Shown one piece after another: positions 176-63,444 of a DNA stretch of 64,000 nt. How positions within the stretch are numbered: the stretch's first letter is position 1; the number at the start of each line of letters is the position of its first letter. This stretch comes from Escherichia phage vB_EcoM_TH18, in the sequence record ON075799; one strand, written 5' to 3'. The position numbers and the translations under genes were made by a program. Below the pieces are notes generated by a model. The model saw only the letters and a list, made by a program, of their open reading frames with translations, was not told the origin of the DNA and searched no databases.

Positions 176-189
176 ATCTATATTAACAG

Positions 190-381: not shown

Positions 382-423
382 GGTATCCTCTGTACATTTC
401 TGCTTTGATATGTTTATGTTTGT

Positions 424-501: not shown

Positions 502-585
502 AGAAATGTAGATTTTAATTGTCCCAGAATCTACTAACTGGTATCGCTGGCTAGGTGATATCTGTGACTTGATTAAGTCAAGAAT

Positions 586-677: not shown

Positions 678-686
678 TGAATATTT

Positions 687-763
687 TGGTGGATCTGGTT
701 GGGGTCGAACCAACAATCTCTCGATTAAAAGTCGAGTGACTTAAACCATTTGGCTACAAATCC
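687..763 (-). tRNA. tRNA-Lys (anticodon UUU)
   Basis: Minus strand: acceptor ggatttg/cagatcc, anticodon stem ctcga/tcgag loop CTTTTAA, T-arm gttgg-TTCGACC-ccaac, CCA encoded. Confidence 0.7.
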
Positions 764-780
764 GTTAAATTATCTTTAAA

Positions 781-810
781 ATAGCTAATTACTCGCACAT
801 AATTAGCTAT
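781..810. repeat. perfect 10-bp-stem hairpin (atagctaatt / aattagctat) in inter-tRNA spacer
   Basis: Exact inverted repeat with 10-nt loop read directly from sequence. Confidence 0.6.
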
Positions 811-996
811 ACGCAACAACTCTCCAAGGAGAGCACACTAATGATCGATTACGATTATATGACTAAATTTAGACCATCATAAGTGTTTGGCTTACGCCAG
901 TAAAGAGCGGACTGCTCTGGGGTATCGGTAAGATGGTTGCAGCCATCTACCGAAAAATCACACCAAGCAACTAAACAAGCTACATTAAAGATAACT

Positions 997-1085
997 TGGA
1001 GGAGGCTGACAGAATCGAACTGTCACCATATCTCTACAGCGGGACTGGGTTCAAACCAGCTTGTGCACCATGCACCCCAGCCTCC
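997..1085 (-). tRNA. tRNA-Ser (anticodon UGA)
   Basis: Minus strand: acceptor ggaggct/agcctcc, anticodon loop TTTGAAC, long variable arm, T-arm gacag-TTCGATT-ctgtc, CCA encoded; 89 nt. Confidence 0.7.
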
Positions 1086-1156
1086 AAAGATAGCCTCTGC
1101 CGAGGATATACACCCAACAAAGGAGGCGCTCAGGTCAGAAGAAATCTGAGCCTTAA

Positions 1157-1250
1157 TGGAGGAAGATGCCAGACTTGAACTGGCACACCCATTTCTGGGT
1201 TACTATCTCCTTAGCAGGGAGATCCCTTACCAAATTAGGGTTAATCTTCC
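1157..1250 (-). tRNA. tRNA-Ser (anticodon GCU)
   Basis: Minus strand: acceptor ggaagat/atcttcc, anticodon stem tctcc/ggaga loop CTGCTAA, long variable arm, T-arm gccag-TTCAAGT-ctggc, CCA encoded. Confidence 0.7.
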
Positions 1251-1271
1251 AATACCTTAGTAATTAAAAAC

Positions 1272-1361
1272 TGGTGGAGAAGGAGAGAATCGAACTCTCA
1301 AGCCGTTTTACCAGTCAGCACATTTCCAATGTGCTTTCGTCGCCAATCGATTTGCTTCTCC
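1272..1361 (-). tRNA. tRNA-Ser (anticodon GGA)
   Basis: Minus strand: acceptor ggagaag/cttctcc, anticodon stem gcaca/tgtgc loop TTGGAAA, long variable arm, T-arm gagag-TTCGATT-ctctc, CCA encoded. Confidence 0.65.
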
Positions 1362-1370
1362 GTTTTAACT

Positions 1371-1446
1371 TGGCAGGGGATGGTTGATTCGAACAACCGA
1401 TCACGGGGTCAAAGCCCGTTGCATTAGGCCACTATGCTAATCCCCT
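1371..1446 (-). tRNA. tRNA-Gln (anticodon UUG)
   Basis: Minus strand: acceptor aggggat/atcccct, D-stem gcat/atgc, anticodon stem acggg/cccgt loop CTTTGAC, T-loop TTCGAAT, CCA encoded. Confidence 0.7.
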
Positions 1447-1452
1447 TTTGCA

Positions 1453-1527
1453 CGAGAGTGAGGAATAGAACCTCTTAGTCACTGGTTTTGGAGGCCAGCC
1501 TTCACCCAGTGAAGTTACGCTACTCTC
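1453..1527 (-). tRNA. tRNA-Trp (anticodon CCA)
   Basis: Minus strand: anticodon loop CTCCAAA, T-arm with TTCTATT loop, acceptor gagagt/actctc; CCA not encoded. Confidence 0.6.
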
Positions 1528-1535
1528 ATTAAAAA

Positions 1536-2093
1536 CTATTTTCGAAAAGGACTTATGAAAAATGCCAACATCACTCTCTCTCTTGAAAAAGCTCTGTCTT
1601 CAGGAACCACACTCTTCAGTTTCCAACCGACATAAATTCGCCAGTAAAATTGTTTTCCAAACAATCTAAAAGACGGGACAAACGCGAATACACCCCACGC
1701 ATTGTCATTCCACATCAACAAATAGCCTTGTTGGTTATCCTCCACATCAGAGCTTACATGGAGGTTTCCTTTCCACTTTGTCACAGATGTGATTTCACGT
1801 CCAAGTACGTGATAGGAGAAATTGTAGGCTTTATTTCTCCACAACCAAGCAACTCGTTGTAGGTAAACACCAAAACTTCCTATTTTACGGACTTCTTCCC
1901 ATCTCTCTATGTGTCCTCTATCACCGTCTATAGGATTATCATATGTCTCCATCCACCTGAAAATATAAGGCAGATGCCCTGTCTTCTCATTATAGAACGG
2001 AACAACAAAAGGAGCCAGAATAACACAGAGAACCGACATAACTGGGTCAAGAGGTGCTAACAGGATCCACGATAAATATTTTAAGTATCTCAT
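1536..2093 (-). CDS. hypothetical protein (185 aa, aromatic-rich, hydrophobic N-terminus)
   Basis: Long ORF between tRNA sub-clusters; no recognisable motif. Confidence 0.5.
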   Translation of the reverse strand: MRYLKYLSWILLAPLDPVMSVLCVILAPFVVPFYNEKTGHLPYIFRWMETYDNPIDGDRGHIERWEEVRKIGSFGVYLQRVAWLWRNKAYNFSYHVLGREITSVTKWKGNLHVSSDVEDNQQGYLLMWNDNAWGVFAFVPSFRLFGKQFYWRIYVGWKLKSVVPEDRAFSRERVMLAFFISPFRK

Positions 2094-2320
2094 GCAGGAT
2101 CAAGCCTAGATATAATGTACTGGTTTAAATCTGAATATGGGAAGATACTTTCAAAGATAACCTGTTTAAATCTGAAGCCGCACAAACCGAAAAGTACCTT
2201 CTGACACTCACCAAAAGAGCAATCTTTACCAACTTTTATCACAACCGTATCGGCAATCTGCACACTTTCTATCTCTTTAGATTCATGATGCCGTACTATG
2301 ATTACTTTAGAAACCATCAT
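2090..2320 (-). CDS. hypothetical protein (76 aa)
   Basis: ORF whose stop overlaps the start of the downstream gene by 4 bp (translational coupling pattern). Confidence 0.4.
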   Translation of the reverse strand: MMVSKVIIVRHHESKEIESVQIADTVVIKVGKDCSFGECQKVLFGLCGFRFKQVIFESIFPYSDLNQYIISRLDPA

Positions 2321-2445
2321 ACTCGTCCATATTAAAGCCTTCTACTAAAGATAGTAGATGTCTAGGGTTGGACCGCAAACGCAACCCCATGGAATTTGTT
2401 ACGGTCTTCAGTTGACCCAAGCGGATTTCATTGACATCTTTTAAC

Positions 2446-2520
2446 TGGAGCATCCAGAGGGTATCGAACCCTCGACTTCAGCTTGGAAGGCTGTAGTTTT
2501 CCCAATTAAACTATGGATGC
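2446..2520 (-). tRNA. tRNA-Gly (anticodon UCC)
   Basis: Minus strand: acceptor gcatcca/tggatgc, D-stem gttt/aaac, anticodon loop CTTCCAA, T-arm gaggg-TTCGATA-ccctc, CCA encoded. Confidence 0.7.
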
Positions 2521-2525
2521 ATATT

Positions 2526-2601
2526 TGGTGGGAGTGGTAGGCTCTGCCCCTACGTCCTCTCGATTATCGGTCGAGCGATCTACTAACTGATCTACACTCC
2601 C
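2526..2601 (-). tRNA. tRNA-Ile-like (anticodon GAU), atypical T-loop
   Basis: Minus strand: acceptor gggagtg/cactccc, D-stem gatc/gatc, anticodon stem ctcga/tcgag loop CCGATAA, T-stem gtagg/cctac but loop GGCAGAG lacks TTC; CCA encoded. Confidence 0.5.
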
Positions 2602-2665
2602 AAACTGTACTGGCCCAACAACCACGATTGGAGGGTATCGTCACACATCAAAGCCAGTACAGTTT
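2602..2665. repeat. 13-bp-stem hairpin (aaactgtactggc / gccagtacagttt, 38-nt loop) filling the spacer between two tRNAs
   Basis: Exact inverted repeat read from sequence; no T-loop, so not a tRNA. Confidence 0.55.
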
Positions 2666-2669
2666 TAGT

Positions 2670-2759
2670 TGGTGTGCCGTGATAGAGTCGAACTACCCGA
2701 GTCCCTTTCGAGACAGGAGATTTACAGTCTCCCCCGCTACCCCTACGGTCTAACGACAC
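2670..2759 (-). tRNA. tRNA-Tyr (anticodon GUA), type II
   Basis: Minus strand: acceptor gtgtcgt/acggcac (one G-U), anticodon stem ggaga/tctcc loop CTGTAAA, long variable region, T-arm ggtag-TTCGACT-ctatc, CCA encoded; D-arm irregular. Confidence 0.6.
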
Positions 2760-2760
2760 A

Positions 2761-3108
2761 TTAACCTTGTTTGAATTGAACAATATCCGTCGAGAACGGT
2801 TTAGCTGCCTTAATAGGTGCTTTTTCTGAGTTATCTTTTTCGAGTAACTCTTCGTTTTCCTCATCAAAGTAATCAGAAAGCATCTGCTCACCTTTCTCAA
2901 TAACATAACGAGCTATATTTTCTCTGATATTGTCTTTTGTATTCACATTCTTCATCAAATCCCTAAGAACCTGATGAGCTTCAGGAATCATTGCAATCAG
3001 ATTCGTTTTTAAATCTAGGATATTTTTCTCTAACTGAATTGCATTAGATTCCTCTTTCAGAGGACGACCTTTTCCTCTTCTACGTTTTGTAAGCTGCTTA
3101 GTAGCCAT
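2761..3108 (-). CDS. hypothetical protein (115 aa from internal ATG; acidic C-terminal half)
   Basis: ORF 2761-3333 trimmed to the Met at 3108 because the upstream part overlaps tRNA-Cys. Confidence 0.45.
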   Translation of the reverse strand: MATKQLTKRRRGKGRPLKEESNAIQLEKNILDLKTNLIAMIPEAHQVLRDLMKNVNTKDNIRENIARYVIEKGEQMLSDYFDEENEELLEKDNSEKAPIKAAKPFSTDIVQFKQG

Positions 3109-3193
3109 TTTAAAACCCCACTTAATGATATTATCAAATAAAAACATATCTGTCAAGTGGTATTTTAACATATTTACCAAGAAATTGAAAGTT

Positions 3194-3270
3194 TGGAGCA
3201 CGGTGTCGGACTTGAACCGACATATATCTGTTTTGCAGACAGATCCGTAACCAAATTCCAGCAACCGTGC
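3194..3270 (-). tRNA. tRNA-Cys (anticodon GCA)
   Basis: Minus strand: acceptor gcacggt/accgtgc, anticodon stem tctgt/acaga loop CTGCAAA, T-arm with TTCAAGT loop, CCA encoded. Confidence 0.7.
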
Positions 3271-3356
3271 AATAAGTACCCCAGGTAGAGAACCTATAGA
3301 GTGGGTCTTACGAGCCGCGCTGACGATTCTCAAGTTGGGGTTAATCTGGTCGAGGA

Positions 3357-3433
3357 GACAGGATTCGAACCTGTGACCTACGGCTTAGAAGGCCGCTGCT
3401 CTATCCAACTGAGCTACACCCCGAAAATAAGAA
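3357..3433 (-). tRNA. tRNA-Arg (anticodon UCU)
   Basis: Minus strand: canonical D-arm tagctcagttggatagagc, anticodon stem gcggc/gccgt loop CTTCTAA, T-arm acagg-TTCGAAT-cctgt, CCA encoded. Confidence 0.7.
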
Positions 3434-3623
3434 TGCTTTATAGTGTATGGTTACTCAACCTCACTCCAACTTCCACAGTTGGTGCTCTACGAGCATGACT
3501 ACGTTTGAAATCAACGTTGCGCACCGATAGCTTTCTCACGCATTGTATGCCTCATTCCCAACAAATGCTGATCAGACATTTATATCGAATAATATAAGCT
3601 AATACACTATAAAACAAACTTGT

Positions 3624-3720
3624 GGCTGGGTGATGGAATCGAACCACCTATGTATTCAACGGCTTCCCCGTCTATTTTCAGGATTATAAATCCTCGCCCT
3701 TGCCAAAGGGCTTACCCAGC
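3624..3720 (-). tRNA. tRNA-like gene, unusually long (about 97 nt); anticodon loop TTTATAA (UAU?) with about 30-nt insertion before the T-arm
   Basis: Minus strand: acceptor gctgggt/acccagc, D-stem gccc/gggc, 4-bp anticodon stem agga/tcct, extra hairpin acgg-ggaag-ccgt, T-arm ggtgg-TTCGATT-ccatc; CCA not encoded. Confidence 0.4.
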
Positions 3721-3722
3721 AT

Positions 3723-3797
3723 TGGTGCTCGCAGCAGGTTTCGAACCTGCAACCCCCTGCTTACAAGGCAGGTGCTCTACCGTTGAGCTATACGAGC
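3723..3797 (-). tRNA. tRNA-Thr (anticodon UGU)
   Basis: Minus strand: acceptor gctcgta/tgcgagc, D-stem gctc/gagc, anticodon stem cctgc/gcagg loop CTTGTAA, T-arm gcagg-TTCGAAA-cctgc, CCA encoded. Confidence 0.75.
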
Positions 3798-4162
3798 AAT
3801 AAGACATTGCTTCCGATTAACAGCCTTGAGGCTTTACAGACCATATCTTGTGAGCCATAACCTGTGCCAAGGATTTCAGATGATAAACGAAATTTTATCT
3901 TTCAAGAGTCAACTTTCAAGTTTCATCTTTTACATTTAACCATTGACCTTTATTGTATGAACTTTTACTTAGTGGAAACAACAAGGCATCTTCGTGTGCC
4001 TCGCTGCATCTATGTCCTGTATTATCCTCATACATATACGATACATGGTGGGGGATATTTAACCTCCAACCCCCAGGAGGCAAGATGATGTAAACTTCGT
4101 TAATCAAAAGCAATGTTTTAAATTTCAAAACAAAGGAACGATAATGATATTATCAGAGCCTT

Positions 4163-4810
4163 TTAGAGAGAGTGCTCAATCTCAATTTCTGTCTTAGCGT
4201 TTGACTCAGACAACGCAAAATCAACGTTAGACAAGAAATCTTCAATCTCTTCTTCAAGAGAACGAATCTTAGAAGCCAGTTCAAGAGGATCCACAACCGA
4301 TGGTGTGTTCATCATTCGAATAGGAGCTTCCACAGTCTTAATCTGCTCTGCATCTGGCGCTTTATCACGTTGGATATATGGCGCTCTTGCATTTTCAAGT
4401 TTATCTTCCAGAGATTTTTCTTCTTTTGCCAGAAGAAGCTGTGCAGAAGCACGCTGTGCACAAAGTTTGTTTAACAACTCTTGTTTAAAGCAAATCGTCC
4501 GTTTGCGTTCGATTGCCTCAGCAACTGTCATAGACACATTACCAATTTTGACAATTGTCTCAGCATTAGACTTAACAATTTTTGCTTTCAGTTCATCACG
4601 CACTGCCAAGAGGTCTTGCAGACTTTGATAGTCGTTGATCGCAGATTTCTTAAAATCATCAACAGAGCCGATATAACCCGGAATCTTACAATTATTCTCA
4701 GTTCCTTTTGCAATCTTAATACAATCAAGATTGTAGATACGCTTATTGATCTTATCTTCAATTTTAGAGATAGAAGCAAGTGCACGAGTTACGGAAATCT
4801 TAGTAGACAT
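4163..4810 (-). CDS. hypothetical protein (215 aa, predicted coiled-coil, K/E-rich)
   Basis: Long ORF; composition only. Confidence 0.55.
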   Translation of the reverse strand: MSTKISVTRALASISKIEDKINKRIYNLDCIKIAKGTENNCKIPGYIGSVDDFKKSAINDYQSLQDLLAVRDELKAKIVKSNAETIVKIGNVSMTVAEAIERKRTICFKQELLNKLCAQRASAQLLLAKEEKSLEDKLENARAPYIQRDKAPDAEQIKTVEAPIRMMNTPSVVDPLELASKIRSLEEEIEDFLSNVDFALSESNAKTEIEIEHSL

Positions 4811-4883
4811 GCGATCTCTCCTATGTAAATCAGCTTTGATAAAGTAACTATCCAGAAAAACAAAAACTATGTCAAGAAAAATT

Positions 4884-5075
4884 TTAATCTTTTACAGCAT
4901 CTTTTATAGAATCACAAAGATCTTGAACAACATCAGATGTCGGTGACAAAATCATCTCGTCGGCTGCTGCTATAGCATCTGATGCTAAATCAACAAACGG
5001 AGTTGTTACCGCAGAAGTCACTTCAACAGCCGTTATTGTTACTTCGCTTGCAATCTTAAGCAAAGATCCTATCAT
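4884..5075 (-). CDS. hypothetical protein (63 aa)
   Basis: Small ORF downstream of the tRNA-Met gene. Confidence 0.3.
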   Translation of the reverse strand: MIGSLLKIASEVTITAVEVTSAVTTPFVDLASDAIAAADEMILSPTSDVVQDLCDSIKDAVKD

Positions 5076-5151
5076 AATCTCAACCCTCCTGAATATCCGT
5101 GATTCCCTTTATTTAACGACGCTGGCTCACGGTGGCACTCTCGTCAATAAA

Positions 5152-5475
5152 CTATTTTTTAGTTTTCTTACCGTTTTCTACAGAAATGCTTGTTTTCTGT
5201 TTCGCTTCTCGTTCGCGCTTTGTTTTCCCAGTGCGAATACGATATGAAGCAGAAATAACTTCACCACCAATGACACGAGACACAGATTCGTAATACATTT
5301 CAGTATTACCGTCTTCATCTTTGCGTTTTTTCAGAACTGCTACAGTTTGCGTTTTACCACCAAGGCGCACATCGTGCGGTGCAGAATGTGTCTGCGTGGA
5401 TTTTGATCCAAACTGAAAAGGTTGCTTTATCGCCTCGATAGCTGACACCTTTTTAGCAGACTGTTTCTTAGCCAT
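5152..5475 (-). CDS. hypothetical basic protein (107 aa from internal ATG, Lys-rich)
   Basis: Internal ATG at 5475 preceded by GGAGG; Lys-rich termini. Confidence 0.45.
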   Translation of the reverse strand: MAKKQSAKKVSAIEAIKQPFQFGSKSTQTHSAPHDVRLGGKTQTVAVLKKRKDEDGNTEMYYESVSRVIGGEVISASYRIRTGKTKREREAKQKTSISVENGKKTKK

Positions 5476-5527
5476 TAAGTTTTCTCCTCCGAAAACAATA
5501 AACATAGTTTATTTCGTGTGCCACATT

Positions 5528-5604
5528 TGGTGGCCCCTGCTGGACTTGAACCAGCGACCAAGCGATTATGAGTCACCTGCTCTATCCAACTGAGCTAAGG
5601 GGCC
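5528..5604 (-). tRNA. tRNA-Met (anticodon CAU; elongator-type or Ile2-type)
   Basis: Minus strand: acceptor ggcccct/aggggcc (G1-C72 paired), canonical D-arm, anticodon loop CTCATAA, T-arm gctgg-TTCAAGT-ccagc, CCA encoded. Confidence 0.7.
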
Positions 5605-5936
5605 GAATCTCTTAATATGAGATGATATTATCCTGTATGATCTACATTGTCAAGAGATATTTTAAAATTTTATACATCCCAGTTTTCTTCTTGATAACAA
5701 CCTTCCCCGAATCCAACTTCTTTTTCAAAATCAATACCTTTTTTCATACATTCCTCACATTAACAGATATTGTTTTCAAACTCAAAACGTAAAATACGAA
5801 CTCTGTCAATACACTGCTGTAATCTACAAAGCAACAACTCAACTTGTTTATGCGTCTCTTCAGTATACGTTTTGGTCATCTTGCTTTTCTCCGTGATCTT
5901 TTCATTGCAGCTTCTGCACGTCTTTGTTTACGATTT

Positions 5937-6185
5937 TTAGATGGTTGTTCTAAGGATCCTGATAACGTACTTTGTTGTGCTAATCCCTTCGATGGGGTAG
6001 AAATAATATAATCCCCCTTCTTCACCGAACGATGCAATATATTTCCAGGATTCAATTCCAAAACCAGTTGTAGAAAAAGCGACATCATCCGCTTCTTCAA
6101 GCGCATCATCATGTGTTTTATGGAAAGACTCATGTTCTACGTACTCCCCGTTATCAGACTTAAGAACCATTTTTAATTTAAACAT
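5937..6185 (-). CDS. hypothetical acidic protein (82 aa); overlaps an alternative-frame ORF 5876-6133
   Basis: Two overlapping minus-strand ORFs in different frames; the true product is unclear. Confidence 0.3.
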   Translation of the reverse strand: MFKLKMVLKSDNGEYVEHESFHKTHDDALEEADDVAFSTTGFGIESWKYIASFGEEGGLYYFYPIEGISTTKYVIRILRTTI

Positions 6186-6253
6186 AACAAATCACCACTA
6201 ATTTTATTTTTATCTTGTTATTAGATCTTATCAGTGGTGTTTATTTTTGTCAA

Positions 6254-6460
6254 TTAAACTATTCCAAAAGCCTTGACACCACGCTCGTATTCTGCTACTG
6301 CAAGCTCATGAGGAGAAAGGTCACATGAGGCATCCTTGCAAAGACCGACTTCGATGTAATGTTCTTCTAGTCCATCAAGGATATCTGGCTCCCACGCTTT
6401 TTTCATGTCTGGATGGACTGATGCACGATTTCTATCGTACTTCGCTACGAGATTTCTCAA
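6254..6460 (-). CDS. hypothetical protein (68 aa)
   Basis: Small ORF just downstream of the NAMPT gene on the same strand. Confidence 0.35.
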   Translation of the reverse strand: MRNLVAKYDRNRASVHPDMKKAWEPDILDGLEEHYIEVGLCKDASCDLSPHELAVAEYERGVKAFGIV

Positions 6461-6513
6461 AACATTCTCCTCAAAATAAAAACCCCTCCATGTGGAGGGG
6501 AATGATTATGGTG

Positions 6514-8229
6514 TTAAAGCTGTGATAAGGCTCTTTGGCGAATTTCTTCAAGATCCTCATCCACAAGCAGCTTACCATTAACAAAAACTGTTCTAAGCTC
6601 GTTATCATGGTCAGATACTTGGTTAATACCAAGATTATCTACCAGCTTCAACTCGCCATCATCACCACGAATAACTTTAACAAAACCTTTCGCAGATTTC
6701 TTCCCAAGATCAGTCTTAGGCTCTTTTACGACCATTACTTGTCTGCCATCAATCACAGCACCAGTAGCTTTTACAGCCATCCCAAGAGAATCACGGGTTG
6801 TATATTGCGTTGTATAAGACCCTACACCAAACACAATGTTACTGGAAGCAAACCCTCGTTCTTCAAGGCGCTCAAAGATCTCTTTAGCACGGGAGATTGT
6901 GATAGAGTCTCCGTAGATTAAACCAACATGGCTATCAAGAACTTTGTAACCCAAAGAGTTTACACTACCACCAAAGATTTCCCACAAGCATTGTACAGCA
7001 CCCTTAACTTCCTCTTTTGTCAGATAATTTGTAAATTCATCACCTGTCAAAGATTTCCAATCTACGAGGTTGCCTTCCGAATCTCGCATCCATGAAGTGT
7101 CTCTGGACATCTCGTATAAAGTGACATATTTGCCATTTTTAAACAGCACAGCATCCATGTCACAGCACTGCCCCGTTGCCCATTCTTCCTGAGAGCACAC
7201 GCGATAACCAGCAATGATGTGCTCTGGGATCCCACTGTCAGGTCGGAAGACCAGCTTGCCATCACGAGACATAATCTCATCTTTCAGGATTTTTGCTGCC
7301 TGTGTAATGATTGCCCAAAAATCATAGCTGTCAGCGACGTATGAAGCATAACCTGATGGGAAAATCTCTGTCACATAACGCTTTAAGAACTCAACTTCAG
7401 CACGAAAACGTGCTTCATCAAGCGGCATATCAGGATTTTCCTGCTGGATACGCTCAACAATAAAACCAATGTTCGTTGTCGCTACGCTATGCTCAGATGC
7501 GGGAATAGACCCAGCAACAAAGCGACCTTTCATGTTGTAATAGCGATTTGCGTAAACAATCGCTGGAATTGTATCTGTGCCCATTGAGCTAATCAGTTGC
7601 CCAAATTCGCTCTGTGCTGCGTCATGTGTTCCAGCTTCACCACGGTATGCAAAACAATGGTTCTGGAAAGGAACATGATCGTTGTTATCACATGTTTTCT
7701 TTGCCCACAGTTCTGATAGTTTACGGTATTGCCAGAAAGTCGTTGCCGTGGTAATTGTCTTCCAAGTCTCCGATGAGATCACGCTCTCAAGGAAGTTCGG
7801 CAGCCAGTAAAAATCAGGATGCGTGTTCTGAATCGTGAACATGGGAACCTGAACAGGAACAAGAGTTCCTTCAGGCAAAGCCCTAATTTCAATTGGGAGA
7901 TAACCAAGGTCATGCAATTTCTCAAAACCCCAAGTTTCAACAGCATCCTTCCCAATGCTCAAATCACAAATCTCTTTGTAATCCTGAATCGCCTTTTCTT
8001 TCGGTAAAGCGAAGAAATTATTATTAAACATGTCGATCAGGAACCACTTGATAAATCCCTGAAGACCTGCAAACATCACACGATGGTCATCATCTGCAAA
8101 GTGTACAAAGTGTTTCACATTGCGTGGGGTCATGTTGTCTTGAACAAACTGTGAACGTCTATCGTACATCGAGATGTGACTTGGTTTATAAAAATCTGCG
8201 AACAGCAATGGACTTTCTTTGTGAAGCAT
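6514..8229 (-). CDS. nadV: nicotinamide phosphoribosyltransferase (NAMPT/NadV-like)
   Basis: 571-aa ORF; remembered NAMPT-family signatures including the RPDSG motif and GSYT segment. Confidence 0.8.
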   Translation of the reverse strand: MLHKESPLLFADFYKPSHISMYDRRSQFVQDNMTPRNVKHFVHFADDDHRVMFAGLQGFIKWFLIDMFNNNFFALPKEKAIQDYKEICDLSIGKDAVETWGFEKLHDLGYLPIEIRALPEGTLVPVQVPMFTIQNTHPDFYWLPNFLESVISSETWKTITTATTFWQYRKLSELWAKKTCDNNDHVPFQNHCFAYRGEAGTHDAAQSEFGQLISSMGTDTIPAIVYANRYYNMKGRFVAGSIPASEHSVATTNIGFIVERIQQENPDMPLDEARFRAEVEFLKRYVTEIFPSGYASYVADSYDFWAIITQAAKILKDEIMSRDGKLVFRPDSGIPEHIIAGYRVCSQEEWATGQCCDMDAVLFKNGKYVTLYEMSRDTSWMRDSEGNLVDWKSLTGDEFTNYLTKEEVKGAVQCLWEIFGGSVNSLGYKVLDSHVGLIYGDSITISRAKEIFERLEERGFASSNIVFGVGSYTTQYTTRDSLGMAVKATGAVIDGRQVMVVKEPKTDLGKKSAKGFVKVIRGDDGELKLVDNLGINQVSDHDNELRTVFVNGKLLVDEDLEEIRQRALSQL

Positions 8230-8292
8230 GATCTCAACCCTCCAACCTAAAAGCGTATTTTTTCACTAAAACGTATCTTTGTCAAGATGTAA

Positions 8293-9102
8293 TTAAAAAT
8301 TTTCTGTCCAGTCGTAGTACGCATAGATTTCGTCAACGCCACCGTTGAGAATAAATTCTTTCCCACGAGAGAAAATCCCATGCGTGACATACAAGATAAC
8401 ACGTTTAGCACCAGCAGCTTTCAAGGCTTGAGCTAAGTTTGTAAACGTAAACCCACCATCGCAGATATCATCAACAATCAGGCACATCTTCCCATCGACA
8501 TCACCAAACACTGTTGTGCCTGTGATTGCCCCTGTTCCCACATCACGGATTTTACCAGCTTCAACCACAGATAGTTCCAAGGCATCAGCTACCTTCTGGG
8601 TCTTCTTGCGTGCACCTGCATCTGGAGCAACCAACACAAGCGATTCGTCCGTAAGCAGATCAAAATCAAACTTCATGTTCAAGAACAATTCAGTCTGAGA
8701 ACGAATTTTCACGTTATCAAGCAGTGCTGCGGATACGTCACTGTGTGGGTCATCGACGATGACTTTGTGGAAACCCAGCGAGTTAATCATTGTGGCAAAG
8801 ACTTTCACCGACAGAGCTTCACCAGGGTTCATAACTCGGTCTTGTCGAGCATACGGGATGTACGGCAGGTGTAAAACCTTTTCCACACCAACATCCAAAT
8901 TGCCAAGACGATTGACTGCATCAACAAGCAACGCAAGACACATCACATCTTGGGAGTGCTTAATGCGAGCGAAGATATCCACAAAACCAATCGAACCCTT
9001 AGGGATATAGTGCATATCGATCTTCACCTGCTCCTCACCACCACTGAAGGTAAAATGGTCAACTGGAACATGCAACTTGTTCAAACTCAAACGAATATTC
9101 AT
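8293..9102 (-). CDS. prs: ribose-phosphate pyrophosphokinase-like (PRPP synthetase)
   Basis: 269 aa; PRPP-binding loop VDDICDGGFTF (type I phosphoribosyltransferase fold); next to NAMPT. Confidence 0.75.
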   Translation of the reverse strand: MNIRLSLNKLHVPVDHFTFSGGEEQVKIDMHYIPKGSIGFVDIFARIKHSQDVMCLALLVDAVNRLGNLDVGVEKVLHLPYIPYARQDRVMNPGEALSVKVFATMINSLGFHKVIVDDPHSDVSAALLDNVKIRSQTELFLNMKFDFDLLTDESLVLVAPDAGARKKTQKVADALELSVVEAGKIRDVGTGAITGTTVFGDVDGKMCLIVDDICDGGFTFTNLAQALKAAGAKRVILYVTHGIFSRGKEFILNGGVDEIYAYYDWTENF

Positions 9103-9500
9103 GATTTATCTCCTCTAGCACGATTGACGATAATATAATTTCTTGGTTTCACGTTACCATCAGAATCCTGAAATCCTGATCTGACACGCCTGACATAACC
9201 AAAGCTCTCCATCCGAGACAGAAATTCAGACACTTTGGTTCGTGAGTTTTCGTTCCACCCCAACAGACCACACAAGGATTGCTGTGACGGAAAGAATACC
9301 AGTTCCCCACCCAAGGGGTTCCGACTCTTGAAATACTCGTATCTCCACAACAAGCGTATCAGTCTTTGCAGATCGCTTGGTGATAACCGTTCATCAAAAA
9401 CCCACTCTGTCGGCACAGCGATGTACGACCCAGCTTTCGGATTTACATGGAAACCCCCAACATTCGATTTCAAGGCAAACTCCGGTGTGTAATTCAACAC
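9099..9500 (-). CDS. hypothetical protein (133 aa), first gene of the leftward operon
   Basis: ORF whose stop overlaps the prs start by 4 bp; sits immediately left of the AT-rich control region. Confidence 0.5.
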   Translation of the reverse strand: MLNYTPEFALKSNVGGFHVNPKAGSYIAVPTEWVFDERLSPSDLQRLIRLLWRYEYFKSRNPLGGELVFFPSQQSLCGLLGWNENSRTKVSEFLSRMESFGYVRRVRSGFQDSDGNVKPRNYIIVNRARGDKS

Positions 9501-9540
9501 CGAGAATGCTACTCATAACACCACACAATGTCAACCCCTC

Positions 9541-9859
9541 CCATATGTCCCCATTTCAGGGACATTATGATCTAATATAATATATATTATATAATATAAT
9601 TTAATATAATACTACGTATTATATATATTATAATATATATATATAATTTATATAAAATACACTAAGTCTTGAAGAATGTCAAGACTTGATTTTAAATATT
9701 TTTGTTGATATGATTCGATTGAGTCGAATCGTATGGTTCGATGATTTCGAATCATAGAGTTCATGTTGTTTTGCCTGAAATCGTGAGTCGATGAGACTCT
9801 TCAGGCAATACGTGAGTGTGTAAGATGCTCACTGCGCTGATAGCTTGTGATCATCTAAC
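9541..9859. promoter_or_regulatory. divergent intergenic control region: about 80-bp near-pure A/T tract (9585-9660) plus short palindromes and TCGA-containing repeats
   Basis: Composition and repeats read directly; lies between the leftward (tRNA/NAD) and rightward (small-gene) transcription units. Confidence 0.5.
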
Positions 9860-56051: not shown

Positions 56052-56942
56052 TTACTTACCTGTAGGTAATGTTACAAACGGGGCTTGTGCTCCACTAGTC
56101 ATATACACAGGTGTTACACCATTCCATTTATTAATTGCTTCAAGCTGCATAATCTCTGGATTTTTACGCAGGGCAGCACCACGTAATTCAATAGACTCTG
56201 CATCACCTTTGGCAATCAGAATTTTGGCATCTGCCTCGCCTTGTGCCTGTAGACGTTTAGACTCAGCCTCACCACGAGCAGCCTCGATACGTTTCTGAGC
56301 TTCAGCTTTCACTTGCTGAATTTCGTTTTCACGAAGCAGTGCTTTTTGGGTTGCTTCGATCTTAGCATTGATGGAAGCCGTCACCTGTGGTGGATACACC
56401 AGATCGTCTGTATAAGACAGCTTCACAAGCACAATACCAACAGGATCAAGTTTTTGTTTCAGATGCTTGGTTACACGCTCAAGCAGTTGTGTTTTTCCAT
56501 CTCCAGCTAGTGTACCGATATCCATTGAACCAGCTTCCTTGATCAAGGCATCAGAGATATTCTGGCGAATATTTACCTCTGTAATTTCTTGCACACCTTT
56601 ACGGTACGTCTGGAAAATAGTTGTTACTTTAGAACGATCAACATAATATTCAACACCAATTTTCGCAGAAACTGTCATAGAGTCTTTTGTCTGGAAATTG
56701 AATGGTTGATCATAGTTATGCAACTGGTTAAAAGTCGGGAACTGATAAATCTCTTCGTTCCAAGTCAGCCAGTATTTACCTACCCCAACTTCTTGTTGTT
56801 GGACACCTTTTTCATCGCCGTACAGGTCAACTTTAACGCCAACGTAACCTGCTGGAACGGTTGCACGCTCACAACCTGTCAGACCAATTGCAGAGACTGC
56901 AAGAATACCTGCAAAAATAACTCGTTTAATAGATTTAAACAT
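56052..56942 (-). CDS. SPFH/band-7 domain lipoprotein (HflC/HflK-like)
   Basis: Lipobox LTGC after a signal peptide; Ala/Glu-rich coiled-coil tail typical of SPFH proteins. Confidence 0.7.
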   Translation of the reverse strand: MFKSIKRVIFAGILAVSAIGLTGCERATVPAGYVGVKVDLYGDEKGVQQQEVGVGKYWLTWNEEIYQFPTFNQLHNYDQPFNFQTKDSMTVSAKIGVEYYVDRSKVTTIFQTYRKGVQEITEVNIRQNISDALIKEAGSMDIGTLAGDGKTQLLERVTKHLKQKLDPVGIVLVKLSYTDDLVYPPQVTASINAKIEATQKALLRENEIQQVKAEAQKRIEAARGEAESKRLQAQGEADAKILIAKGDAESIELRGAALRKNPEIMQLEAINKWNGVTPVYMTSGAQAPFVTLPTGK

Positions 56943-57512: not shown

Positions 57513-57540
57513 ATTATAAAATTTTTATATGGTTTGTCAA
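57513..57540 (-). promoter_or_regulatory. sigma70 promoter (TTGACA-16-TATAAT) on the minus strand
   Basis: Consensus hexamers read on the reverse complement. Confidence 0.6.
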
Positions 57541-57753: not shown

Positions 57754-57808
57754 TTTTCACCACACTTCCAAAACAAGCCCCTCATAAGGGGCTATTGTTA
57801 TAGATTGA

Positions 57809-58498
57809 TTATACTTTAATAATTGGTTCAACAAAGGTAATTGGTTTCATAATTTTACCATTGCCATCCATAAAAGCAACACGTTCACCGACCTGAGCAT
57901 GGATTACAGAATTATAACGCCCTTTTGAACGGCGTTCAATCTCTTTACATTCAAACTCCAACATCTCAAGTTCTTTATCCTTGTAGTCAGGATATTTAAC
58001 AAGTAGTTGTGTGATTGTTGGGAATTTAGAGTCGTTGGAATTAAGAACCTCTTCCATATTGTATCCAAGATTGATATCCAAATTATAGCATAAAGCCACA
58101 ACTTGTTTCAAAATCTCTGCATAATCAGAGATCGTCAACTTATCTTTGTGCACCAGGTCAAGTAAGCTGCCAATTTTCAACTCAACCATGTCTGATGGGA
58201 CCATACATGACTCCCATTTTTCAGTGTCCCATTGCACCAAACGCAAAGCGTAAGAGCTTACGACAAAAAGATCACATGCTGCATCAATAACCCCTGCCTT
58301 GTCGGATGAGGATAAGGCCTCAATAAGCTCAGAAAGCTCCTCTTTAATAAGATTTGTTTGTAGTTTAATATCTGTTGACATTCCTCCACGCCCAATCCTT
58401 GCCACCTCATTCCATTGGGCAACACGATGACCATATGCAATCATGTTATCAGGCTTGCTCATGGCTTCAAGTGTGGAATACATATTTTTTAAATTCAT
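57809..58498 (-). CDS. MazG-like nucleotide pyrophosphohydrolase (putative)
   Basis: EELSELIEA ... DAACDL spacing resembles the MazG EExxE/D motif pair. Confidence 0.4.
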   Translation of the reverse strand: MNLKNMYSTLEAMSKPDNMIAYGHRVAQWNEVARIGRGGMSTDIKLQTNLIKEELSELIEALSSSDKAGVIDAACDLFVVSSYALRLVQWDTEKWESCMVPSDMVELKIGSLLDLVHKDKLTISDYAEILKQVVALCYNLDINLGYNMEEVLNSNDSKFPTITQLLVKYPDYKDKELEMLEFECKEIERRSKGRYNSVIHAQVGERVAFMDGNGKIMKPITFVEPIIKV

Positions 58499-58891: not shown

Positions 58892-60181
58892 TTAATATAT
58901 AGGGTCCCACGTCAAAGAATCTACCTCACGAACACATTTACCAACAGGGAATTGCGGAACACCGTCATCAGTCCTTGCTTGGTAGGTAAAAGTTATATAT
59001 TTGCCGATAAGTTTTTTCATATTCTCTTGTGAGCGTTCTTCGTGTGTGCCTCTCATCTTACAGTTAAATTGTGTACCATCCTTCTCAGCACACAACAGGA
59101 CACCTTCTCCATTCTTATCCTCAAAAGAATCAATAACTCTGGCCTCACCATCCTGAAACAGTTTCCACTTTTGGAGATCAGAGGATCTTTGCCCGAACTC
59201 ATACTTTCCGTGAAAGTTTCGTATTACAACACCCTCATAACCTGATTCCATAAACTCCTTGATGAGCATTTTAACACGATCCTCACCAGACACTATTGCT
59301 CCGTGCACTACTTTAATTAGGTTATAAGGCCATGTATATTCAGAGACTTTCTGTAAATTATTAAACCTACACCCGTTTGTGTCAGAAGACATCCATGGTG
59401 TGTCATCTTCCGAAGGGATATCGAAAATATGATATTCTAAGTCTAAACTTGAATAACCACAATACTTATTAATATTTTTCTCTGGTTTCTTTGTGATAGG
59501 ATGTTCTAACCCTTCGGAGTCTTTCCAAAATTCATCACCATTGTTAATTGCTTTTTCAAATCGCTTTATGTCTGATTGATAGTCTTTTTCTATCTCAGCT
59601 TCTATCTCTTCTGGGGATCTCCATTTTTTAGCTAAGGAGACTATTTTCTGTAAACTTAATCCATGAATATACAATTCCCCATCAAACATTTTCAATCCTG
59701 TCTTTTTGGCTAGTTTAGACATCTGATCAAGCAATTGGCCTTGTACAGGATATGTTTTATTGCCACGACTATTGAATACAGGCACGCCATCATCACAAAC
59801 CAGAACAAGTGCTCTGACACCATCAAGTTTTGGTTGAACATGCAAAGGATACACTAAAGAACTTTTCCTTTTTATGGCATCATGTGCAAGCATTGGTGAG
59901 AAATCTTGTGTTTTTGTCAGGTCATTCTTGGATACACGATAGCCAAGCCTGACTTGTTTTTCCCACTTAGCTTTTGCTTCTAAAGCAGCTTGTTCTTCAT
60001 CCGTTGTTTCGTTCTTCTTTCCAATATTTTTAGCAAAGCATTTGGTACGTTTATACTGCATTTTACCGTTTTCTTTGCCAAATTCAACTACGATCTCTGA
60101 CCCTTCTGTCCACACATTCCACACTTGGTGTGATCCATCCCTGTTCAGGGCATACAATGTTGGAAGATTATTCTCAGGCAT
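58892..60181 (-). CDS. ATP-dependent DNA ligase
   Basis: Nucleotidyltransferase motifs I (KLDGVR), III (FDGELY), IV (EGVVIR) and V (KWKL). Confidence 0.7.
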   Translation of the reverse strand: MPENNLPTLYALNRDGSHQVWNVWTEGSEIVVEFGKENGKMQYKRTKCFAKNIGKKNETTDEEQAALEAKAKWEKQVRLGYRVSKNDLTKTQDFSPMLAHDAIKRKSSLVYPLHVQPKLDGVRALVLVCDDGVPVFNSRGNKTYPVQGQLLDQMSKLAKKTGLKMFDGELYIHGLSLQKIVSLAKKWRSPEEIEAEIEKDYQSDIKRFEKAINNGDEFWKDSEGLEHPITKKPEKNINKYCGYSSLDLEYHIFDIPSEDDTPWMSSDTNGCRFNNLQKVSEYTWPYNLIKVVHGAIVSGEDRVKMLIKEFMESGYEGVVIRNFHGKYEFGQRSSDLQKWKLFQDGEARVIDSFEDKNGEGVLLCAEKDGTQFNCKMRGTHEERSQENMKKLIGKYITFTYQARTDDGVPQFPVGKCVREVDSLTWDPIY

Positions 60182-60959
60182 TAAAGTCCTCGCTTGTTAC
60201 GACATGTTTTCCTTCAAGGTGATTCTCTACCAACTCAATAAGTTTTGGGTTACTAAATGCTTCAACCGCCCCACAACGCATTTGGTACACACCAAATTTA
60301 TCATACTGCTCTTGCTCAAAGTAATTGATCGCTGGGTTTATCACAACAAGTTTAATACCTCGTTTTGCGATTGCATGTAACAATTCCCAGTTAAAATCAA
60401 TAACTTGGTTAGAGCAGCCAACAAGAAGCACAAGGTCTTGGGTATTAAGGTCATCAAGCATAGTAAACATGTCCTGATAAAGTAGTGCATTCTCACCGAA
60501 GAACACCACATTCGGCTTGCACCACCAGTAATCATCAGGATCAACACTCGTATATCCAACATCCATAACGCGCTTAGGAAATTCTTCACCATTCTGTACG
60601 ACAATCTCTTTTAGGAAACCATGCACATGGAGAATATCTTTCTTTGGGATTCCAGCGCGTTCAAGTAAATCGTCAACGTTAGTTGTAAGATTACGTACTT
60701 GTCCTGGATAACGGTTATACCATTCTGCTACACGCAGATGCGCCATGTTGGGATGTACAGTCTTCAATTCTTCACGACGTTTGTTATAAAACTCGTGTGT
60801 TTTGTGGTAAAAATTACCACGAAATGCATGAATATTACATACTTCTTCAAGATCATATTCTTCCCAGAGGGCTTTACCTGACGAAGTATCTGTACGGAAT
60901 GTGCGGATACCGCTTTCTGTTGACATACCTGCACCACTGATCACAAGTAATCGACGCAT
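60174..60959 (-). CDS. Sir2-family NAD-dependent protein deacylase / ADP-ribosyltransferase (sirtuin-like)
   Basis: GAGMSTESGIRTFR, TTNVDDLLERAG, HG and KPNVVFFGE sirtuin motifs. Confidence 0.75.
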   Translation of the reverse strand: MRRLLVISGAGMSTESGIRTFRTDTSSGKALWEEYDLEEVCNIHAFRGNFYHKTHEFYNKRREELKTVHPNMAHLRVAEWYNRYPGQVRNLTTNVDDLLERAGIPKKDILHVHGFLKEIVVQNGEEFPKRVMDVGYTSVDPDDYWWCKPNVVFFGENALLYQDMFTMLDDLNTQDLVLLVGCSNQVIDFNWELLHAIAKRGIKLVVINPAINYFEQEQYDKFGVYQMRCGAVEAFSNPKLIELVENHLEGKHVVTSEDFNA

Positions 60960-60967: not shown

Positions 60968-61375
60968 CTATTGTAATTTTAAAGAGTTACGTAAACGTGC
61001 TTCTTGACGGTCACGAATAAACTGCGGAACAGCATGAATGCTTTCGTTGCCATGATAATTTTCCACAACAACAGATGTTACATCATAGCAGTACTTTTCT
61101 GCTAAGTCAAGATAAGGTTTCAACTCTTTCACAGAAGTTGTTGTGTTTGAAACAATAATCTTTTCAACTCCATTTTGCATATGGAGTTCTACCTTGTCAC
61201 GACACCATTGATGAGCTTTGTGGACATTTTCTTCCTTCCACTCATACACACCTTCTTCGGTGTAATGAAATTGGTCAGCTTCACATACAGGCCAACGACC
61301 ATCATCAGACAACTCTTTAGCAAGAGTTGACTTTCCTGACCCAGAGACACCACGTAAAATAAATAACTTTTTCAT
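60968..61375 (-). CDS. P-loop polynucleotide 5'-kinase-like protein (Pnk kinase-domain-like)
   Basis: Walker A GVSGSGKST at the N-terminus; 135 aa; resembles the kinase domain of T4 Pnkp from memory. Confidence 0.5.
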   Translation of the reverse strand: MKKLFILRGVSGSGKSTLAKELSDDGRWPVCEADQFHYTEEGVYEWKEENVHKAHQWCRDKVELHMQNGVEKIIVSNTTTSVKELKPYLDLAEKYCYDVTSVVVENYHGNESIHAVPQFIRDRQEARLRNSLKLQ

Positions 61376-61385: not shown

Positions 61386-61718
61386 TTAGTATTGGTGACG
61401 ATAAAACTTTATACCTAGAGTGTTTCCAAAATATTCTCTCGCCAACATAAACTTGTTCACGGCAGATGGGTTAGAGCTATGTACGTGAATTTCTTTAAGA
61501 TTCATGAACTTGCCATCGTGCAATTCACGTTCAACATAGAGGAAAGCATCATAACCTTCCTCATCACCACCCAAATCATTATCAAAATGAATGGAATCAA
61601 TGTCACTATCACTCATAAATTTTAGTAATGAGTAGAAGCTGGAGAGATTCTTACACCATATGGCATTAGGGTATCCATAATCTACTGGATTTCGCAGATC
61701 ATCCAACCACAGTCTCAA
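61386..61718 (-). CDS. hypothetical protein (110 aa)
   Basis: ORF between the kinase and ligase genes. Confidence 0.45.
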   Translation of the reverse strand: MRLWLDDLRNPVDYGYPNAIWCKNLSSFYSLLKFMSDSDIDSIHFDNDLGGDEEGYDAFLYVERELHDGKFMNLKEIHVHSSNPSAVNKFMLAREYFGNTLGIKFYRHQY

Positions 61719-62647
61719 ATTGCACCTCCGAAAAAATCCTCAATAATTTCACGACGGAATTGTTCATGCAAACATTCCCAATGTTCTTTAGAATAGTTAT
61801 CACGTAAATAATTTAAAAGGTTATAATACTCTTCATCAACTTTCTTCTTAGCTTCTTCTGGGTTTCCCCAAATCATATCCCACTTGTTCTTACCGCCACG
61901 CATCAAAAATTTCTTCGCCAAATAGTGTGGCGATTTGATCTTCAAGAGAAGATCTTGCTGTCCTGTAGCAGCACGCACAACAAATCCTTCATGTTTGCAT
62001 TCTTTAGACATTTTCAGGATGTCTGAAAAGTGCATATTTATGTAAATCTCTGGTCGTTTAAAACCGAACTCTTTTGCGATAAGATCAAGAGCTTTTTCAC
62101 TAAGCATAGAAGTTAATTTGTCTTTGTGAAATCGAACACCAATCAAATACACACCAGCCTTTTCTGGTACAATGTGTGGATCTGAAGGAGAGCAAATCTC
62201 AAAGATAAATGTTGTCTTTGGTTCTTCCACACATGATAACAACATTGGCAAATTAGTACATTCTGCCATGATCATACCTTTTGCAAGTTTTGCAAAATCG
62301 GAATCTAAAGTTCCTGTTGTTGAAACAATCAGCTCACCATTGTATGAGCTTACTGCTGCCATAAAGCCATTAACTTTACGTGCTGCATTCACAACCATAT
62401 CTTTTGGAAGATCAGTACCGTTCTCTAAATGGTTGAAAATTTTAGTAAAAGGCCACACAATGATGTTGTCATCACTGTCAACAACCATACCACGGCAATC
62501 AAGCAACCGACTATCTTGACACCACAGATTTTCCCAGAAAACTTTATTGCTGTATTTCAAAACAGACAAACCTTTAAACTCACCACTGGTATAAGTCTTC
62601 TTTTTAACAAGACCTTTTGATACTAAATCTTCAACATTGAATTTCAT
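61715..62647 (-). CDS. RNA ligase-like nucleotidyltransferase (putative)
   Basis: Motif I KVNG, motif IV EGFVVR, motif V LLKIKS; 310 aa; distinct from the DNA ligase at 58892. Confidence 0.5.
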   Translation of the reverse strand: MKFNVEDLVSKGLVKKKTYTSGEFKGLSVLKYSNKVFWENLWCQDSRLLDCRGMVVDSDDNIIVWPFTKIFNHLENGTDLPKDMVVNAARKVNGFMAAVSSYNGELIVSTTGTLDSDFAKLAKGMIMAECTNLPMLLSCVEEPKTTFIFEICSPSDPHIVPEKAGVYLIGVRFHKDKLTSMLSEKALDLIAKEFGFKRPEIYINMHFSDILKMSKECKHEGFVVRAATGQQDLLLKIKSPHYLAKKFLMRGGKNKWDMIWGNPEEAKKKVDEEYYNLLNYLRDNYSKEHWECLHEQFRREIIEDFFGGAI

Positions 62648-62865: not shown

Positions 62866-63444
62866 TCAATGACCATCAGCAGTGAAAATGTCTTTTTCCA
62901 TGCACATTTGGTATGCTTCTGGTAGATCCAAAATTCTCCCATGTACATCCCAACCCACATCAAGGATCCGCCCTTTCGCACTGTAAGATCCGTGGCAATG
63001 ACCGTGCAAGAATACAGACCCATAGTGAGATTTATTCCACGCGGCAAACGGGTAATGACTCATACAAATTTTTTGTTCATAATCGTTAAATTCGTAATAA
63101 TCGCACACATCATGACCACGTTTTTTGAATGTTTTAATCGCATCAAAATTGTCATGATTGCCTTTGACAAGGACGATATGCCCCACAAGTTCATCAAGAA
63201 TTTCTTCAAGTCTTTTAATAACTTGCTTGCCATGACCGAAACAGAAATCACCAAGCACAAAAGTCACAGTGTCAGCATTTGCGCCGTGGTTAAATTTCAC
63301 TGTGAGGTCTTGGTTCATTTGTTCAACGGTTTTGTACAAATCACCACGAAAACGTTTTGAACTCTCAAAGTTCAGGATGTTTTTATGCCAGTAATGTAAA
63401 TCAGATGTTACACGGTATTTAGTTCCCATTTCTCTCTCCCACAC
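62866..63444 (-). CDS. calcineurin-like metallophosphoesterase (phosphatase)
   Basis: Motifs SDLH, GDFCFGHG, GNHD, HGHCHG. Confidence 0.8.
   Translation of the reverse strand: MWEREMGTKYRVTSDLHYWHKNILNFESSKRFRGDLYKTVEQMNQDLTVKFNHGANADTVTFVLGDFCFGHGKQVIKRLEEILDELVGHIVLVKGNHDNFDAIKTFKKRGHDVCDYYEFNDYEQKICMSHYPFAAWNKSHYGSVFLHGHCHGSYSAKGRILDVGWDVHGRILDLPEAYQMCMEKDIFTADGH

Follow-up and report, generated by a model that had tools for sequence, protein, structure and literature searches.

A phage sirtuin without zinc ligands in the nucleic-acid end-repair operon of Escherichia phage vB_EcoM_TH18, tentatively read as a CobB-like lysine deacylase

Loss of the zinc site was reported in 2016 for the Sir2/CobB proteins of Vibrio phages and of KVP40, where modelling led to the proposal of stabilising salt bridges and indicated that the acetyl-lysine tunnel is conserved despite the loss (PMC5107563). 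Iyer, Burroughs, Anantharaman and Aravind (Viruses 2022, PMC9503650) described the "type 2" gene neighbourhood of phage sirtuins, with phages V5 and Mydo as prototypes, and predicted that such proteins act like KptA/Tpt1, removing 2'-phosphates from RNA. The sirtuin gene analyzed here lies at 60174-60959 of a 64,000 nucleotide stretch ("the window") of Escherichia phage vB_EcoM_TH18 (record ON075799), where the gene order is the same as in type 2. The gene, the zinc loss and the RNA-repair neighbourhood are all already present in literature and databases; added here are the restriction of the RNA-repair association to certain lineages (about 57% of the sampled loci), the prevalence of a core repair cassette mostly devoid of a sirtuin, the lack of a visible displacement of KptA, and a co-localization with NARP1-type genes. 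The closest described proteins are the phage Sir2/CobB-like members of phrog_2162 (the "Sir2-like protein" of T5, ORF84 of rV5, Sir2/CobB of KVP40 and phiSt2), which belong to the same family over the full length; among them, a small domain without zinc was reported for the Vibrio-phage proteins.

The gene encodes a genuine sirtuin, whose fold is composed of a large Rossmann domain and a small helical/beta subdomain. Pfam SIR2 (PF02146) matches with E=1.6e-25 and 90.5 bits (gathering score 24) over profile positions 1-178 of 180; phrog_2162, "Sir2 (NAD-dependent deacetylase)", matches the full length with E=6.7e-101; E. coli CobB (1S5P) is found by sequence with E=2e-19 and 28% identity. Because of these scores the family assignment is secure. 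The motifs quoted in the initial annotation, GAGMSTESGIRTFR, TTNVDDL, HG and KPNVVFFGE, were all located in the open reading frame (ORF), whose ATG is preceded by AGGTGG, a Shine-Dalgarno-like sequence a few bases 5' of it. The AlphaFold2 (AF2) model features a predicted local distance difference test score (pLDDT) of 90.8 and a predicted template modelling score (pTM) of 0.89. When it was compared by Foldseek with known structures, the top match was CobB 1S5P (E=1e-18; template modelling (TM) scores 0.75/0.86), with Sir2-Af1 and SIRT5 next; 283 PDB matches were found at E<=0.001, and the 50 top-ranked matches listed are all sirtuin structures. In both sequence and fold, the protein is nearest to the class III deacylases (CobB, Sir2-Af1, SIRT5).

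Conservation was evaluated on an alignment of 151 sequences, composed of the sirtuin and its 150 best cluster representatives; an exhaustive search gave 3,615 hits at E<=1e-3, 35 of them at E<=1e-30. The catalytic His and the NAD-binding residues, whose loss the initial annotation had named as the point to be checked, are retained: H113, N94 and G114 are each found in 150 of the 151 sequences, D96 in 146. Y58 is found in 144 and R61 in 115; the GAG of the Rossmann NAD-binding site (G9/A10/G11) is nearly invariant, and GIRTFR, within the NAD-binding motif, is common to the sirtuin and E. coli CobB. Position 93, which is Thr in the sirtuin, is Q in 92 and T in 46 of the aligned relatives. In the substrate channel, K148 and P149 are invariant, F153/F154 are conserved and V151 aligns with CobB V187; the FGE and INP motifs are also conserved.

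The acyl pocket was mapped by using the residue names of engineered CobB variants, present among the PDB matches: CobB A76, Y92, R95, I131 and V187 correspond to C41, Y58, R61, V95 and V151 of the sirtuin, and C41, Y58 and R61 are invariant among 45 close homologues. The class III signature is therefore carried by the Tyr-x-x-Arg motif and by C41, which takes the small-residue site occupied by A76 in CobB and by A86 in SIRT5. Since these positions map to like residues, the pocket resembles that of a CobB/SIRT5-type enzyme; enzymes of this type recognise acetyl and acidic acyl-lysines (PMC8556138). Conservation of the catalytic core and of the pocket residues indicates that the enzyme is apparently active. 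CobB, SIRT5 and Sir2-Af1 share with it GIRTFR, the catalytic His, the Asn/Asp pair, Tyr-x-x-Arg, FGE and the (V/I)xP motif; in contrast to CobB and class III enzymes, it features no zinc-binding Cys at the four usual positions, has Thr in place of the Gln of TQNID, and is encoded by a phage within an RNA/DNA-end repair operon.

All four zinc ligands are missing, and the sirtuin is predicted to be zinc-free. Cys residues are found only at positions 41, 147, 182 and 229, with no CxxC pair; the 33 residues from HG to KPN contain a single Cys, so that the canonical CxxC...CxxC is not found at the sequence level. The initial annotation had described the zinc module as reduced, with isolated Cys residues only: the Cys are indeed isolated, but the ligands are wholly absent rather than reduced. 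Among 105 close homologues, the segment from HG to FGE contains 0-2 Cys, never as CxxC. The four Cys are missing in 69 of the 151 aligned sequences, and all of the approximately 35 closest representatives are devoid of them; in distant relatives, CxxC...CxxC surrounds the same conserved (D/N)-(I/V)-G-Y motif. A rough neighbour-joining (NJ) tree places the sirtuin within a clade of 35 representatives, all without zinc ligands, while across the whole tree the zinc-ligand state changes at least 7 times. Judging from sequence, the protein belongs to a phage-specific, putatively zinc-free clade (phrog_2162), derived from class III (CobB/SIRT5-like) sirtuins. The strands of the beta module (114-122, 130-133 and 146-151) are modelled at pLDDT 95-97: because the three-stranded module is still modelled with high confidence, its fold is likely kept, the ligands alone being lost. 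The loss is functionally interesting, because canonical sirtuins are said to need the module (PMC12700824), although it had been described before.

The region is 100% identical to Escherichia phages 18-1-2, 19-1-2 and 24-2-1 (OK136181, OK181860, OK181862), where the gene is annotated as "NAD-dependent protein deacetylase of SIR2 family"; relatives of the phage are Av-05 and the rV5-like myoviruses. Positions 1-9565 of the window correspond to the end of GenBank OK136180, and the start of OK136181 is found from 9566 on; since these two separate records belong to one phage and their ends are joined at 9565/9566, the deposited genome is split where the window is continuous. By tblastn, homologues were found in 998 of 50,697 phage records (2%), with a coverage of 80% or more of the protein in 875 of them. 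They come from T5-like, rV5-like, phAPEC8-like, Klebsiella, KVP40-like Vibrio and jumbo phages, with an identity of 67-69% in Klebsiella/Mydovirus phages, about 58% in T5-like phages, 52% in rV5 and 41-43% in Vibrio phages. A phage-borne sirtuin, at first taken to be unusual, is not so, because of the number of records and of phage groups involved; the family also has a named PHROG, filed by PHROGs under nucleotide metabolism, and annotations in GenBank.

The sirtuin is a member of a tightly packed nucleic-acid end-repair operon, whose features are reported in Table 1. Nine minus-strand genes, separated by -8 to +21 nt, run from 63444 to 57809, in the order metallophosphoesterase, a 66-aa ORF, Rnl1-type RNA ligase, cREC, P-loop kinase, sirtuin, DNA ligase, a 123-aa membrane protein and a MazG-like protein. 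The previously noted position, between the DNA ligase and RNA-repair-like genes, is in agreement with this order: the ligase lies on one side, the kinase, cREC, RNA ligase and metallophosphoesterase on the other. All five partners of the type-2 neighbourhood (RNA ligase, cREC, kinase, MazG and the phosphoesterase, which is optional in that type) share the operon. When compared to rV5, where the kinase is divergent and the ligase lies 2 kb off, cREC and the sirtuin are here separated by the kinase, and the DNA ligase shows translational coupling to the sirtuin. A search of PDB sequences with the RNA ligase, aimed at telling whether it is closer to T4 Rnl1 or to fungal Trl1, gave no match at E<=0.01.

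Table 1. Position of the sirtuin, of its sequence motifs and of the other operon features in the window; "aa" refers to residues of the sirtuin.
Feature	Position	Strand	Description
Calcineurin-like metallophosphoesterase	62866..63444	minus	first operon gene; Pfam Metallophos E=4e-8; phrog_547
Rnl1-type RNA ligase	61715..62647	minus	Pfam RNA_lig_T4_1 E=1.2e-17; phrog_562 E=2e-65
cREC (cyclic-phosphate processing receiver-like)	61386..61718	minus	Pfam cREC_REC E=1.7e-15
P-loop (AAA_33) polynucleotide-kinase-like	60968..61375	minus	Pfam AAA_33 E=4e-10; phrog_2071, phrog_505
Sirtuin gene	60174..60959	minus	ORF of 261 aa, ATG start, TGA stop, pI 5.5
NAD-binding motif GAGMSTESGIRTFR	60894..60935	minus	aa 9-22; G9, G11, F21, R22 nearly invariant
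FYNKRR	60774..60791	minus	aa 57-62; Tyr58/Arg61 = class III anion-binding pair; aligns with CobB FYNARR
TTNVDDL	60666..60686	minus	aa 92-98; nicotinamide/ribose pocket, Asn94 and Asp96
Catalytic His113-Gly114	60618..60623	minus	HG motif
Beta module, predicted zinc-free	60519..60617	minus	aa 115-147, with conserved D-V-G-Y motif, in place of CxxC...CxxC zinc ribbon
KPNVVFFGE	60492..60518	minus	aa 148-156; substrate-channel/FGE loop
ATP-dependent DNA ligase	58892..60181	minus	Pfam DNA_ligase_A_M and OB_2; start overlaps sirtuin stop by 8 nt
MazG-like nucleotide pyrophosphohydrolase	57809..58498	minus	last operon gene; Pfam PRA-PH E=5e-6; phrog_671
GC-rich hairpin and T-run	57776..57793	minus	likely operon terminator

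A promoter scan performed about as on shuffled sequence (25 found, 23.1 expected), and the limits of the operon therefore rest on gene spacing and on the terminator hairpin. Just downstream of this hairpin, which is bidirectional, a perfect sigma-70 consensus (TTGACA, 16 nt, TATAAT) is found on the minus strand at 57513-57540; together they suggest a transcription-unit boundary after the repair operon. Further along the window, the minus strand encodes an SPFH/Band 7 (stomatin/prohibitin-like) membrane protein of 296 aa (56052-56942, Pfam E=2.4e-20), a NARP1-like gene pair (6514-8229 and 8293-9102) and, at 18-5604, 15 tRNA genes: Phe, Leu, Pro, Asn, Lys-UUU, three Ser, Gln, Gly, Tyr, Cys, Arg-UCU, Thr and Met. 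Several of these tRNAs match, by amino acid and anticodon, known targets of anticodon nucleases, which fits a phage endowed with an RNA-repair operon.

Gene neighbourhoods were compared in 81 sirtuin-centred loci, 78 from IMG/VR and three from GenBank records (rV5, phiR2-01, nt-1). The type-2 cassette (Rnl1-cREC-kinase-sirtuin-ligase-MazG) is found in 16 of them, all from rV5-like or from approximately 145-kb Klebsiella/Mydovirus-like phages. Type 3, with a HAD_SAK_2 "Swiss-army-knife RNA repair" phosphatase (Pfam E=1e-20) encoded some 1 kb downstream, is found in 31 T5-like loci. Type 1 is seen in the Erwinia jumbo phage Kaldavass, whose sirtuin has an Acb1-like 2H phosphoesterase on one side and a Nudt16-like Nudix-cREC fusion on the other, and Nampt in the vicinity. 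Enzymes processing cyclic or terminal phosphates are thus set beside the sirtuin in three independent arrangements. The association with RNA repair is lineage-restricted, concerning about 57% of the sampled loci: for 36 of the 81, no RNA-repair gene is present within 3 kb, and the neighbours, phAPEC8-like loci included, are mostly uninformative: unknown PHROGs, a DNA methyltransferase and DUF7275, with an AAA_28 kinase at some loci.

Some annotations at these loci may be refined. In Kaldavass (L237, 3275-5661), the 148-aa "RNA ligase" matches Pfam Acb1, an anti-CBASS 2H phosphodiesterase, with E=2e-15, and the "nudix hydrolase" is the Nudt16-like Nudix fused to cREC; these two proteins flank the sirtuin homologue. 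In Yersinia phage phiR2-01 (L080, 6096-7504), g097, annotated as a second "Sir2 (NAD-dependent deacetylase)", is the HAD_SAK_2 phosphatase; followed by two DUF7415 proteins, it forms a trio that T5-like phages (phiR2-01, 31 loci) retain downstream of the sirtuin. Upstream of the sirtuin, at a distance of a few kb, DUF7275/DUF7277 proteins recur in phages that are not related to each other, Vibrio nt-1 (L081, 1843-2604) and an approximately 150-kb enterobacterial phage (L050, 4712-5716). Ten long homologues of the sirtuin, checked for fusion partners as clues to function, contain only a tandem Sir2, a WG repeat or nothing.

When 79 IMG/VR loci were centred on Rnl1 homologues, the partners found were the kinase in 68, the metallophosphoesterase in 57, MazG in 13, the sirtuin in 11 and cREC in 10. 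From these counts, the core heal-and-seal module is composed of Rnl1, kinase and phosphoesterase, to which one enterobacterial phage group adds the sirtuin, cREC and MazG. The core cassette stands without a sirtuin in 68 of the 79 loci, and in phAPEC8-like genomes both are present, about 31 kb apart. A tight coupling of cREC and sirtuin was ruled out, as only 8 of 76 cREC-centred loci feature a sirtuin nearby, though cREC again adjoins the sirtuin in the unrelated jumbo phage. PRPS-like and Nampt-like genes dominate the ten commonest neighbour clusters of the sirtuin-less cassettes. In 38 of the 79 loci (L082-L160), one or both occur no more than 7 kb from the cassette, namely in 30 of the 68 without and in 8 of the 11 with a sirtuin. 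A description of this co-localization of RNA repair and NAD+ reconstitution was not found in the literature covered. No KptA/PTS_2-RNA domain was present in the ten commonest neighbour clusters of the 68 sirtuin-less cassettes, to which the search was confined. RNA-repair, NAD+-rebuilding and sirtuin genes tend to share islands; therefore adjacency alone is no proof that the sirtuin acts on RNA.

The reading preferred here, at a rough probability of 0.45, is that the sirtuin is a CobB-like NAD+-dependent lysine deacylase. The enzyme-level evidence favours it, because of the class III affinity, the residues of the lysine channel and of the anion pocket, the acidic pI, and the fact that the characterised class III sirtuins named among the PDB matches or in the cited review are all deacylases. 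The whole clade is acidic (median pI 5.2), unlike what is expected of a general RNA binder. The modelling of the Vibrio-phage homologue, carried out independently (PMC5107563), led to the same reading. Activity, acyl-lysine acceptor and targets may be inferred as follows. The sirtuin, co-transcribed with the end-repair genes (phosphoesterase, Rnl1 RNA ligase, cREC, kinase, DNA ligase and MazG), would act early in infection on host or phage proteins. The acyl-lysine would enter the conserved hydrophobic channel and attack C1' of the nicotinamide ribose, whereupon nicotinamide would leave; His113 would then promote formation of O-acyl-ADP-ribose, and the lysine would be freed. The Tyr58/Arg61 pair may allow acidic acyl groups (succinyl, malonyl) to be accepted besides acetyl.

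Several observations weigh against a deacylase. The zinc module, of which the sirtuin has lost all four ligands, is reportedly needed by canonical sirtuins for deacetylation (PMC12700824); neither an acyltransferase nor an obvious protein target was found linked to the gene; phosphate-processing genes flank it in three unrelated arrangements (cREC with metallophosphoesterase; HAD_SAK_2; 2H with Nudix-cREC), which a plain deacylase leaves unexplained. In the literature searched, neither experimental work on phage sirtuins nor assays of any clade member were found. All seven NCBIfam CobB equivalog models score below their cut-offs, the best at 115.6 bits against 243: since they fall so far below, the sirtuin is not a CobB orthologue, and a CobB taken from the host was ruled out by these scores and by the identity of only 28%.

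The context evidence, given by the phosphate-processing neighbours, favours instead an RNA-end or phosphate-linked role. As predicted in PMC9503650, all three of whose neighbourhood types were found again, the sirtuin would be a non-homologous analogue of KptA/Tpt1, where a 2'- or other terminal phosphate of cleaved or religated RNA attacks C1'' of NAD+; this, the main rival reading, is possible, but doubtful. The analogy is functional only, as the KptA/Tpt1 fold is ART-like and unrelated to the Rossmann fold of the sirtuin. Both use NAD+ and release nicotinamide, and their formally parallel chemistry, through a 1'',2''-cyclic ADP-ribose species (PMC6097658 for the Tpt1 mechanism), makes an RNA-end role chemically plausible; each is accompanied by ligase, kinase and cyclic-phosphodiesterase activities (PMC9503650; PMC6097658). 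In its content the operon parallels fungal Trl1 (ligase, kinase, cyclic phosphodiesterase) together with Tpt1, and the sirtuin is the only enzyme encoded there that belongs to an NAD+-consuming family; Tyr58/Arg61-Arg62 may form an invariant anion site, and the peptide-binding zinc module appears remodelled. The residues of the narrow acyl-lysine channel, however, are kept as in CobB, and the protein is acidic. Rnl1, kinase and phosphoesterase are already a complete heal-and-seal set, and RNA repair does not need the sirtuin, as shown by the prevalence of sirtuin-less cassettes. The commonest neighbour clusters of these cassettes gave no signal of a displaced KptA, and the distance in phAPEC8-like genomes and the few cREC loci with a sirtuin point the same way; since NARP1-type genes also cluster with the cassettes, adjacency may reflect accessory-gene islands only. 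An extension of the published prediction, rather improbable, is that the sirtuin, as a Tpt1 analogue and a new kind of nucleic-acid enzyme, uses NAD+ to remove or ADP-ribosylate terminal or 2'-phosphates of broken tRNA/RNA, that cREC, phosphoesterase and MazG process the ADP-ribose cyclic-phosphate by-product to ADP-ribose, and that the NARP1-like pair (6514-9102) rebuilds NAD+ from it, in an NAD+-neutral loop. The RNA-phosphate half is the prediction of Iyer et al.; the recycling link, by which the by-product could possibly feed ADP-ribose to the NARP1-like genes, would follow from the co-localization with cassettes.

A different acceptor is unlikely: the sirtuin would be a mono-ADP-ribosyltransferase of protein or nucleic acid, or a phosphoribosyl- or ADP-ribosyl-transferase acting on a small molecule in nucleotide/NAD metabolism, similarly to CobB substituting for CobT, with the adjacent phosphatases, Nudix or MazG taking care of its phosphorylated product. 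Nucleotide and NAD genes are indeed found near the sirtuin (NrdD and PhoH in T5-like phages; td and MazG in Vibrio nt-1; Nampt, Nudix and PhoH in Kaldavass), as is an AAA_28 kinase in 6 loci; the PHROGs category is consistent with such a role, and the phosphoribosyltransferase precedent of CobB is cited in PMC9503650. No specific acceptor may be named, however, and the pocket resembles that of a lysine deacylase. SirTM, a macrodomain-linked ADP-ribosylating sirtuin, is likewise found in a conflict setting; unlike it, the phage sirtuin features the class III signature, and no macro domain is present in its nine neighbouring proteins or as a partner among the neighbours scanned. The early suggestions of a likeness to anti-phage Sir2 NADases, or of a decoy, fare worst: that the sirtuin is an NADase, or an inactive decoy or inhibitor directed against Sir2-type host defence, is very improbable. 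Phages do target NAD+-based immunity, and this genome carries the NARP1-like pair (bioRxiv 10.1101/2024.02.11.579819); yet burning NAD+ would oppose the phage's own NAD+ rebuilding genes. The defence NADases (ThsA, DSR1/2, SIR2-HerA; SIR2_2/SIRim) belong to the same superfamily and also lack zinc ligands, but the beta module, absent there, is retained by the phage sirtuin, which features no fused or adjacent sensor domain, and no SLOG, HerA or pAgo-type partner was found among the neighbours scanned. A defence-type Sir2/NADase was ruled out, as no PADLOC family matches at E<=1 and the proteins closest in sequence and fold are class III deacylases, neither ThsA nor DSR; a decoy is unlikely, since an inert protein would not be expected to keep its catalytic residues invariant throughout the clade.

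About 2% of sequenced phages thus carry a CobB-like sirtuin apparently stripped of its zinc site. If the sirtuin is a deacylase, as preferred here, it would offer the phage a direct route to rewriting the acylation of host proteins; if it acts on RNA phosphates, the sirtuin fold would gain a new catalytic activity, and phage counter-defence a new step directed at nucleases that cleave tRNA. That genes for RNA repair, sirtuins and NAD+ rebuilding cluster repeatedly suggests a joint management of NAD+ use and RNA repair by phages.

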